A stretch of DNA of 64,000 bases from assembly GCF_009931435.1 (NCBI RefSeq), contig NZ_CP043414.1; one strand, given 5' to 3'. The translations under genes and the position numbers were made by a program. Within the stretch, counting starts at the first letter, position 1. The number at the start of each line of letters is the position of its first letter. Below the pieces are notes generated by a model. It was not told the DNA's origin. It saw only the letters and a program-made list of their open reading frames with translations, and did no database searches. Shown here in pieces: positions 30,969 through 35,113 of this stretch. The DNA is from Escherichia coli. GTDB taxonomy: Bacteria; Pseudomonadota; Gammaproteobacteria; Enterobacterales; Enterobacteriaceae.

Positions 30969-31370
30969 ATGGCGAAAGAATTTGGTCGCCCGCAGCGCGT
31001 AGCGCAGGAAATGCAAAAAGAGATCGCTCTCATCCTGCAACGCGAAATTAAAGATCCTCGTCTGGGCATGATGACCACCGTTTCCGGTGTCGAAATGTCT
31101 CGCGACCTGGCGTATGCAAAAGTATATGTGACGTTCCTTAACGACAAAGATGAAGACGCGGTTAAAGCGGGCATCAAAGCGTTGCAGGAAGCCTCTGGTT
31201 TCATCCGCAGCCTGCTGGGGAAAGCGATGCGCCTGCGTATCGTGCCGGAACTGACCTTCTTCTACGACAACTCGCTGGTTGAAGGGATGCGTATGTCAAA
31301 CCTGGTGACCAGCGTGGTCAAACATGACGAAGAACGTCGTGTTAACCCGGACGACAGCAAGGAGGACTAA
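30969..31370 (+). CDS. rbfA: ribosome-binding factor A
   Basis: ORF 30951..31370 trimmed to [23 protein letters not shown]; 133 aa. Confidence 0.93.
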
Positions 31371-32314
31371 TGAGTCGTCCTCGTCGTCGCGGTCGCGACA
31401 TTAACGGCGTTTTGTTGCTGGATAAACCGCAGGGTATGTCCAGCAACGATGCACTGCAAAAAGTGAAACGGATTTATAACGCTAATCGTGCCGGGCATAC
31501 CGGTGCGCTGGACCCGCTGGCGACCGGCATGTTGCCGATTTGCCTCGGAGAAGCGACGAAGTTTTCCCAGTATCTGCTGGACTCCGACAAACGCTATCGG
31601 GTGATTGCGCGTCTTGGACAGCGTACTGATACTTCTGACGCTGACGGACAAATCGTTGAAGAACGTCCGGTAACCTTTAGTGCAGAGCAACTGGCGGCGG
31701 CACTGGATACTTTCCGTGGTGATATCGAACAGATCCCTTCGATGTATTCAGCACTGAAATACCAGGGCAAAAAACTGTACGAATATGCGCGTCAGGGAAT
31801 TGAAGTCCCGCGTGAAGCACGCCCGATTACCGTTTATGAATTGCTGTTTATTCGCCACGAAGGCAATGAACTGGAGCTGGAAATTCACTGCTCAAAAGGC
31901 ACCTATATCCGCACTATCATTGACGATCTCGGCGAAAAACTCGGCTGTGGCGCGCATGTTATTTACCTGCGTCGTCTGGCTGTAAGTAAATATCCGGTTG
32001 AACGGATGGTGACTCTGGAACATCTGCGTGAACGGGTTGAGCAAGCCGAGCAGCAGGATATTCCGGCAGCGGAGTTACTTGATCCATTACTGATGCCAAT
32101 GGACAGTCCAGCTTCGGACTATCCGGTGGTGAATCTTCCGTTAACGTCTTCTGTTTACTTCAAAAATGGTAACCCGGTTCGTACATCCGGTGCGCCGCTG
32201 GAAGGACTGGTTCGCGTTACAGAAGGTGAGAATGGCAAGTTTATCGGTATGGGCGAAATTGACGATGAAGGCCGCGTTGCGCCTCGTCGCCTGGTGGTTG
32301 AATACCCGGCGTAA
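31370..32314 (+). CDS. truB: tRNA pseudouridine-55 synthase TruB
   Basis: 314 aa; [16 protein letters not shown] catalytic-Asp motif; start overlaps rbfA stop (TAATG). Confidence 0.96.
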
Positions 32315-32366: not shown

Positions 32367-32732
<366 letters not shown>

Positions 32733-32747
32733 TTCTTGCGAGTTTCA

Positions 32748-32778
32748 GAAAAGGGGCCTGAGTGGCCCCTTTTTTCAA
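32748..32778 (+). terminator. rpsO intrinsic terminator
   Basis: GAAAAGGGGCCTGAGTGGCCCCTTTTTTCAA. Confidence 0.88.
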
Positions 32779-32977
32779 ACTGACGGCAGCAATTCACTGG
32801 AAACTAATGTATTGTTGCTATGAATGATCTTCCGTTGCAGAGGTTCGCGCGGCTAATGAGAGGCTTTACCCACATTGGGCTGGGTTAGGGTTGTCATTAG
32901 TCGCGAGGATGCGCAGAAGATCGGGTATTAACACCAGTGCCGTAAGGTGCTGTCTAAGAAAGAGAAAGGATATTACA

Positions 32978-35113
32978 TTGCTTAATCCGATCGTTCGTAA
33001 ATTCCAGTACGGCCAACACACCGTGACTCTGGAAACCGGCATGATGGCTCGTCAGGCTACTGCCGCTGTTATGGTTAGCATGGATGACACCGCGGTATTC
33101 GTTACCGTTGTTGGTCAGAAAAAAGCCAAACCAGGTCAGGACTTCTTCCCGCTGACCGTTAACTATCAGGAGCGTACCTACGCTGCTGGTCGTATCCCAG
33201 GTAGCTTCTTCCGTCGTGAAGGCCGCCCAAGCGAAGGCGAAACCTTGATTGCGCGTCTGATTGACCGCCCGATTCGCCCGCTGTTCCCGGAAGGCTTCGT
33301 CAACGAAGTTCAGGTTATCGCCACCGTGGTTTCTGTTAACCCGCAGGTTAACCCGGATATCGTTGCGATGATTGGTGCTTCCGCAGCACTTTCTCTGTCT
33401 GGTATTCCGTTCAATGGTCCGATTGGTGCTGCCCGCGTAGGTTACATCAATGACCAGTACGTACTGAACCCGACTCAGGACGAACTGAAAGAGAGCAAAC
33501 TGGATCTGGTTGTTGCCGGTACAGAAGCTGCCGTGCTGATGGTTGAATCTGAAGCTGAACTGCTGAGCGAAGACCAAATGCTGGGCGCAGTGGTGTTCGG
33601 TCATGAACAACAGCAGGTTGTTATTCAGAACATCAATGAACTGGTGAAAGAAGCCGGTAAACCGCGTTGGGATTGGCAGCCGGAGCCGGTAAACGAAGCG
33701 CTGAACGCGCGCGTTGCTGCGCTGGCTGAAGCTCGTCTGAGCGATGCTTATCGCATCACCGACAAACAAGAGCGTTATGCGCAGGTTGATGTCATCAAAT
33801 CTGAAACCATCGCGACGCTGCTTGCTGAAGATGAAACCCTGGACGAAAACGAACTGGGTGAAATTCTGCACGCTATCGAGAAAAATGTTGTTCGTAGCCG
33901 CGTACTGGCAGGCGAACCGCGTATCGACGGTCGTGAAAAAGATATGATCCGTGGTCTGGATGTGCGTACTGGCGTGCTGCCGCGTACTCACGGTTCTGCG
34001 TTGTTCACCCGTGGTGAAACGCAGGCACTGGTTACCGCAACGCTGGGTACTGCACGTGACGCACAGGTTCTTGATGAACTGATGGGCGAACGTACTGACA
34101 CCTTCCTGTTCCACTACAACTTCCCTCCGTATTCCGTAGGTGAAACTGGCATGGTCGGTTCTCCGAAGCGTCGTGAAATTGGTCACGGTCGTCTGGCGAA
34201 GCGCGGCGTGCTGGCAGTAATGCCGGATATGGACAAATTCCCGTACACCGTACGTGTAGTGTCTGAAATTACCGAATCCAACGGTTCTTCTTCTATGGCT
34301 TCCGTGTGCGGTGCGTCTCTGGCGCTGATGGACGCAGGTGTGCCAATCAAAGCTGCTGTTGCGGGTATCGCAATGGGGCTGGTGAAAGAAGGCGACAACT
34401 ACGTTGTACTGTCTGACATTTTGGGCGACGAAGATCACCTGGGCGATATGGACTTCAAAGTTGCGGGTTCCCGCGACGGTATCTCTGCACTGCAGATGGA
34501 TATCAAAATTGAAGGTATCACCAAAGAGATCATGCAGGTTGCGCTGAATCAAGCTAAAGGTGCGCGTCTGCATATCCTGGGCGTCATGGAGCAGGCGATC
34601 AACGCGCCGCGTGGTGATATCTCTGAGTTTGCACCGCGTATCCATACCATCAAGATCAATCCGGACAAGATCAAAGACGTTATCGGTAAAGGCGGTTCTG
34701 TTATCCGTGCCCTGACCGAAGAAACTGGCACCACCATCGAAATCGAAGATGACGGTACTGTGAAGATCGCAGCGACCGACGGCGAGAAAGCGAAAAACGC
34801 TATTCGTCGTATCGAAGAAATCACCGCAGAAATCGAAGTGGGCCGCGTCTACAATGGTAAAGTGACCCGTATCGTTGACTTTGGCGCGTTTGTTGCCATC
34901 GGCGGCGGTAAAGAAGGTCTGGTCCACATCTCTCAAATCGCCGACAAGCGTGTTGAGAAAGTGACCGACTACCTGCAGATGGGTCAGGAAGTTCCGGTGA
35001 AAGTTCTGGAAGTTGATCGCCAGGGCCGTATCCGTCTGAGCATTAAAGAAGCGACTGAGCAGTCTCAACCTGCTGCAGCACCGGAAGCTCCGGCTGCAGA
35101 ACAGGGCGAGTAA
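32978..35113 (+). CDS. pnp: polynucleotide phosphorylase
   Basis: TTG start at 32978 giving (M)[20 protein letters not shown]; 711 aa with RNase PH, KH and S1 domains; the 740 aa ORF-track call is over-extended upstream. Confidence 0.93.

Follow-up and report, generated by a model that had tools for sequence, protein, structure and literature searches.

The rpsO-pnp intergenic region of Escherichia coli: placement of the pnp leader hairpin, its RNase III sites and the antisense RNA SraG

The 245-nt intergenic region that lies between rpsO and pnp in the 64,000-nt stretch of Escherichia coli DNA analysed here (the window) is almost certainly the E. coli rpsO-pnp control region, functioning as published for strain K-12. 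The list of open reading frames gives the gene order around it as truB (31370-32314), rpsO (32463-32732), the intergenic region, and then pnp. All of the computable defining features were found, both for the small RNA SraG and for the autoregulatory leader of pnp, and nothing departs from the published rpsO-pnp system; the region is ordinary and already known. In K-12, autoregulation of PNPase was reportedly worked out by Portier, Regnier, Hajnsdorf and co-workers. The sequence elements, folds, conservation and covariation presented below were computed here, and the cleavages, the steps that involve PNPase, CsrA and RNase E, and the expression of SraG are taken from the K-12 literature. The positions of the elements in the window are collected in Table 1.

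Table 1. Elements of the rpsO-pnp region, in window coordinates, with the basis on which each was placed
Feature	Position	Strand	Basis
rpsO CDS (ribosomal protein S15, 89 aa)	32463..32732	+	ORF list, RefSeq annotation of identical genome
AGUUUC spacer, rpsO stop codon to terminator	32741..32746	+	≥90% conserved columns, 79 loci
Intrinsic terminator, bidirectional (T1 of rpsO on +, T of SraG on -)	32747..32775	both	
SraG primary transcript, 215 nt	32749..32963	-	RF00082, MG1655 RefSeq mapping
pnp internal promoter P2: -10 TATTGT 32810-15, start ~32820-32823	32810..32823	+	
Hairpin R (RNase III-processed stem-loop, 97 nt)	32826..32922	+	MFE fold, 79-locus folds, covariation
RIII1, 5' arm (approximate)	32858..32862	+	+39 from P2, transferred from literature
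RIII2, 3' arm (approximate), makes processed pnp mRNA 5' end	32896..32900	+	+77 from P2, literature
GGA in invariant 3' arm of R (GCGAGGAUG)	32907..32909	+	motif only
Small hairpin H2 (CAGUGCC-GUAA-GGUGCUG), between R and SD	32935..32952	+	fold
pnp Shine-Dalgarno (SD) AAGGA	32966..32970	+	AAGGA or AGGA conserved in alignment
SraG promoter -10 TAATAT	32970..32975	-	position fits start 32963; hexamer putative
pnp CDS, TTG start, 711 aa	32978..35113	+	RefSeq annotation, 79-locus conservation

The 301 bases from 32700 to 33000 have a match in 5425 of 5426 complete E. coli genomes. Strain 2013C-4282 is 100% identical to the window over this segment, and the matched region is annotated as rpsO and pnp, while K-12 derivatives show 98.3% identity, with five differences in 301 nt. 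Compared with the K-12 rpsO-pnp region, the window lacks one G in the terminator's 5' arm, which yields a perfect stem, and has one A/G change directly past the terminator, two base changes within the apical loop of hairpin R, and one change in hairpin H2 that converts a U-A pair into U-G. Gene content, order and spacing (P1-rpsO-T1-P2-hairpin R-pnp) are common to both, no difference falls in the pairs of stem R, in the SD, in the TTG start or in the SraG promoter, and the published positions of the K-12 elements transfer cleanly onto the window. The five strain-level differences would not be expected to alter function.

Among the E. coli genomes, one of the 5426 is without any match to 32700-33000. 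In the record NZ_OZ040555.1 the query matched only from base 56 onward, at two places, which suggests that the region is interrupted at the terminator or directly before it. In ET12567 (NZ_CP045457.1), a cloning strain derived from K-12, pnp is annotated as a frameshifted pseudogene.

For comparison beyond the species, 80 loci were collected with S15 as the query, one genome per species across the Enterobacterales (from Escherichia to Photorhabdus, Proteus and Schmidhempelia), and the rpsO-pnp spacer was taken from each fetched locus, 79 of them usable. Affinibrenneria salicis (NZ_VYKJ01000001.1) carries two copies of rpsO-pnp, at 394545-397211 (L021) and 677918-680584 (L022), which are 2667 nt each, 100% identical, and located on one scaffold in opposite orientation; they stem from a large inverted duplication or else from an error of assembly. 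On the rpsO side of the window, the S15 leader (Rfam RF00114, 116.5 bits) was detected at 32405-32519 on the plus strand, spanning the rpsO 5' untranslated region (UTR) and first codons. This known element of S15 translational autoregulation was found in 20 of 20 sampled loci. Further upstream, 30822-30892 matches naRNA4/CssrE (RF02564) on both strands, with 73.5 bits (plus; exceeding the gathering score) and 35.2 bits (minus), and looks like a pair of REP-type palindromic repeats upstream of truB.

The strong terminator that the first-pass annotation had placed at 32748-32778 was found at 32747-32775, where the sequence AGAAAAGGGGCC-UGAGU-GGCCCCUUUUUU forms a stable fold. Its G+C core (32753-58 and 32764-69) encloses a loop at 32759-63 and is flanked on both sides by A/T runs, and the GGGGCC/GGCCCC(T)n core is kept in all 79 related loci. 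The folding energy of the 46-nt segment is −24.6 kcal/mol for the plus strand and −22.2 kcal/mol for the minus strand, and the U runs that follow the GGGGCC/GGCCCC stem are UUUUUU (plus strand) and UUUU (minus strand). As the stem lies between an A run and a T run, termination is possible in both directions. A simple promoter and terminator scan of the region did not call T1, since the T run pairs with the A run into the stem, so that no free T tail is left.

Between the rpsO stop codon and the terminator lies the conserved AGUUUC spacer. RNase E cleaves upstream of T1 and thus initiates decay of the rpsO mRNA (Fontaine et al. 2016, PMC5029454), and the spacer is probably the area of the reported cleavage. 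In Erwinia, Pantoea and Tatumella (loci L024, L030, L043, L047, L054, L062-L064, L068-L071, L074, L078, L079 and L082), an additional segment of ~65-70 nt lies between the rpsO stop codon and the AGTTTC-terminator block; its ends form inverted repeats, e.g. ATCTGATCA...TGATCAGAT.

From the terminator to the pnp start the leader measures 199 nt, in line with the initial estimate of about 200 nt. The internal promoter P2 lies inside this leader, so that the full 199 nt are present only in transcripts that read through from the rpsO promoter, and the 5' UTR of P2 transcripts is only ~155-158 nt long. The best candidate for the P2 −10 element, TATTGT, follows a conserved TG (32808-09) and is aligned with TATAAT or TATTAT of other genera. 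No convincing −35 element was found upstream of TATTGT, and the simple promoter scan called neither P2 nor the SraG promoter, both of which are weak matches to consensus. The start was positioned from the pnp RNA used in vitro, which extends from the P2 start to nucleotide 79 of the ORF and is stated both as 1-234 and as 237 nt (PMC5029454). Given that these published sizes are inconsistent, the start falls at 32823 or at 32820, and we infer a position of ~32820-32823, ±3 nt.

A further hairpin (GGCAGCAAU...AUUGUUGCU) occupies 32785-32819 on the plus strand, between the terminator and hairpin R, and overlaps the P2 −10 element. Only read-through transcripts contain this hairpin, SraG carries its complement, and both arms of the hairpin are conserved in Enterobacteriaceae and Erwiniaceae.

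The leader of pnp had been described as a long structured 5' UTR holding the RNase III-processed hairpin of pnp autoregulation, with folding of 32780-32990 proposed as the check. That fold has an energy of −72.8 kcal/mol, compared with −56.9 ± 4.4 for shuffled sequences (z = −3.65; none of 200 shuffles as stable), and it is dominated by a single hairpin of 97 nt, R, which places the element at 32826-32922. From the base upward, R consists of a lower stem, a 4-nt GAGG bulge (32840-43), a 3-bp helix, a 12-bp core in which CGCGGCUAAUGA (32848-59) is paired with UCAUUAGUCGCG (32894-905), and an upper stem with single-base mismatches that ends in an 8-nt apical loop (32873-80).

Conservation of this architecture was assessed in two ways. 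Single-sequence folds recovered the hairpin R architecture in 79 of 79 loci. In addition, a covariance model built from the window structure was used to realign 77 loci (75 distinct sequences). Its first search drew minus-strand mirror matches and was repeated with a stricter cut-off. In the resulting alignment, standard pairs occupy 91.9% of cells, compared with 32-45% after a shift of the 3' partners by 1-3 columns; changes on both sides occur in 21 of 37 pairs; and 168 cells are compensatory, compared with 61.5 ± 7.2 in shuffles (observed values reached in none of 500). A covariance-model alignment is fitted to the structure and in this respect favours R, a bias from which the single-sequence folds are free. 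MAFFT combined with RNAalifold recovered only the invariant core of R because the arms vary in length.

According to Fontaine et al. 2016 (PMC5029454), the two sites at which RNase III cuts R, RIII1 and RIII2, lie 39 and 77 nt past the P2 start. Counting from a start at 32820, cuts after +39 and +77 fall between 32858 and 32859 and between 32896 and 32897, leaving a 2-nt 3' overhang in the predicted stem. This overhang is the canonical product of RNase III; with a start at 32823, both cuts shift 3 nt further on. Because the P2 start is placed only within 3 nt, the two sites are given as ranges in Table 1. Both fall at the top of the invariant 12-bp core. As independent support, RNA-seq of rnc compared with wild type lists pnp with a ratio of 3,782 at MG1655 3311286, a position that corresponds to 32860 in the window, inside the piece excised by RNase III.

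The main function of such a long, stable and conserved 5' UTR hairpin could also lie in transcriptional attenuation or termination, or in binding a protein in riboswitch-like fashion, instead of in cleavage by RNase III, and the invariance of the R core sequence goes beyond a pure requirement for double-stranded RNA shape. However, no U tract follows the 3' side of the stem, where the next sequence is GAAGAUC-GGGUAUUAAC, and R was rejected as an attenuator on this ground. Moreover, the RNase III cuts at both sites of R are documented in vivo and in vitro (PMC5029454), the rnc to wild-type ratio at pnp is among the largest for known sites in the genome-wide table, and no cis-regulatory Rfam family matches the plus strand here. 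We regard this alternative as exceedingly improbable and treat R as the RNase III-processed hairpin. The rnc leader, rncO, and similar elements likewise consist of a long 5' UTR hairpin in which RNase III cleavage triggers decay of the message. Unlike rncO, the regulator of pnp is PNPase and not RNase III, and it must remove a small paired 5' fragment; pnp also has added layers of control in the form of an antisense RNA and CsrA.

The compensatory changes of R sit in the lower and upper stems, and the 12-bp core and the bases flanking it hardly vary, with the frozen arms reading TTCGCGCGGCTAATGAGAG and TGTCATTAGTCGCGAGGATG. The constraint on core and flanks exceeds what base pairing alone needs. 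Across the 79 species, the near-invariant segments are 32844-32863 and 32891-32911, and the neighbouring stems covary.

Insertions of ~30-130 nt were observed exactly in the apical loop of R in Serratia sp. DD3 (L055, ~1600-1730), Dickeya oryzae (L032), Budvicia (L060) and one further locus (L065). They extend the stem and leave the conserved core intact. The Serratia insert resembles an ERIC/IRU-type repeat.

Between R and the SD, a second, smaller hairpin is predicted at the position of H2 in nearly all of the 79 loci, formed by unrelated sequences (median z = −2.4; z < −2 in 57 of 79). The complement of H2 is the 5' end region of SraG; on the pnp side, no function of H2 was found stated in the literature. 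Taken together, a core of R frozen in sequence and an H2 conserved in structure only could reflect a sequence-specific reader of the core, acting beyond the shape recognition of RNase III, and a role for H2, a reading that we hold to be possible but rather unlikely. The candidate constraints on the core are the KH/S1 domains of PNPase, CsrA acting on GGA, or the two overlapping transcripts jointly, and in such a reading H2 would fit a spacer or a 5' structure of SraG. The frozen core sequence and the role of H2 are not explicitly addressed in the literature that we found.

SraG, which had been expected in this intergenic region, lies wholly inside it. Rfam family RF00082 matches 32919..32748 on the minus strand over its full length (model positions 1-177 of 177) with 160.8 bits, compared with a gathering score of 50, and E = 2.8e-30. 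Published coordinates were also mapped: the sraG gene of MG1655 (b4449, alias psrO; 3311183-3311398, 216 nt), transferred base by base, runs from 32963 to 32749. The transcript has 215 nt in the window and 216 nt in K-12 because of the one missing G. Its strand, which the first-pass annotation had not stated, is opposite to that of rpsO and pnp, such that SraG is antisense to pnp and ends at the shared terminator. That annotation had named beforehand two outcomes that would count against it; in the event, a stable long hairpin is present in the leader, and SraG does not lie outside the interval.

The Rfam model describes only the older 174-nt form of SraG (32919..32748), and the start of the primary transcript corresponds to 32963 here. 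For K-12, cRT-PCR combined with polyphosphatase treatment defined the 216-nt transcript; this remapping in 2016, with which the position in the window agrees, put the start 42 nt farther upstream than the earlier 5' end by the numbering of that study, with U as the first base, and the end at the terminator shared with rpsO (PMC5029454). Expression of species of ~216 and ~190 nt was shown in the K-12 strains N3433 and MG1655 only (PMC5029454). The putative −10 element TAATAT is located between the pnp SD and the TTG codon, 6 nt upstream of the SraG start, and is identical in K-12. Mutation of the −10 element, which is near the pnp SD without overlapping it, abolished SraG and raised pnp mRNA and PNPase 1.3-fold (PMC5029454). 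SraG is antisense to ~144 nt of the P2 leader, including R and H2, and its 5' end comes within 3 nt of the SD. Pairing of SraG blocks 30S binding in vitro, and its 5' region is essential (PMC5029454).

Could the minus-strand match be simply the mirror image of a conserved plus-strand leader, with no separate antisense gene? A hairpin and a symmetric terminator can score on both strands, and the plus-strand hairpin model does match the minus strand of most loci, weakly, with 26-43 bits. Furthermore, the −10 element is situated in the A/T-rich spacer between SD and start codon, where −10-like hexamers are easily found, and only about one locus in four has TAATAT there. On the minus strand of the window, however, the Rfam SraG model scores 160.8 bits compared with 27.7 bits for the plus-strand hairpin model, sraG is annotated in the MG1655 RefSeq record, and the −10 element, start and antisense segment are those of K-12 apart from five substitutions or indels outside the promoter. 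In K-12 itself, the transcript was mapped by cRT-PCR and is lost upon mutation of its −10 element (PMC5029454). A mirror image is thus very unlikely, and the match is read as SraG. Among 20 sampled Enterobacterales loci, 19 have SraG matches in antisense orientation between rpsO and pnp.

Translation of pnp had been proposed to start at TTG 32978, which is also the start annotated in RefSeq for an identical E. coli genome; the TTG is found in 79 of 79 Enterobacterales loci. The AAGGA of the SD is located 8 nt upstream. An upstream start, at ATG 32909 (an older 734-aa annotation) or at TTG 32891 (a 740-aa ORF), would make the leader partly coding, and the frame is indeed open in the window from 32891 to TTG 32978. 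However, only 3 of the 79 loci have an equivalent of ATG 32909 that is open and in the pnp frame; in 61 it is out of frame, in 12 a stop codon intervenes and 3 lack it, whereas TTG 32978 with its upstream AAGGA is conserved in all 79. Both upstream codons are buried inside the R stem and have no SD, the current RefSeq start of pnp is TTG 32978, and a 30S toe-print was obtained 15 nt from the pnp UUG (PMC5029454). The two upstream codons were therefore rejected, and there is next to no chance that pnp starts at either of them.

These elements can be arranged into the following scheme, in which the order of events is that of the K-12 literature. Transcripts from the rpsO promoter would mostly end at the terminator at 32747-32775, with some reading through into pnp, and the other pnp transcripts would begin at P2, so that both kinds would carry hairpin R. 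RNase III would cut both arms of R atop the core and free the apical stem-loop, and the short 5' fragment would stay paired to the new 5' end of the mRNA until degraded by PNPase. Removal of the paired fragment by PNPase, followed by decay or repression, is known from K-12 (PMC5029454), where two CsrA sites are also reported, one of them over the SD, that are usable after processing (PMC5029454). In the window, only two GGA motifs occur between RIII2 and the start codon, at 32907-09 and 32968-70. On the strength of motif and position, the first is likely to be the upstream CsrA site, exposed after the RNase III cut and removal of the fragment by PNPase, and the second, within the SD, is the presumptive second site. 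CsrA would bind both motifs on the bared mRNA, and RNase E would attack it. Translation would begin at the weak UUG codon at 32978, and the 5' 42 nt of SraG would pair near the SD, block 30S binding and modestly lower PNPase. The end result would be a self-limiting output of PNPase.

The value of the present analysis is that of an annotation check: the elements are placed at the level of single bases, and the strand of SraG, as well as its length beyond the Rfam model, is corrected. The region to which this applies, rpsO-pnp, of which the window has an intact copy, is a classic model of nuclease autoregulation that brings together RNase III-dependent decay, removal of a protective RNA duplex by PNPase, repression by CsrA and an antisense RNA.
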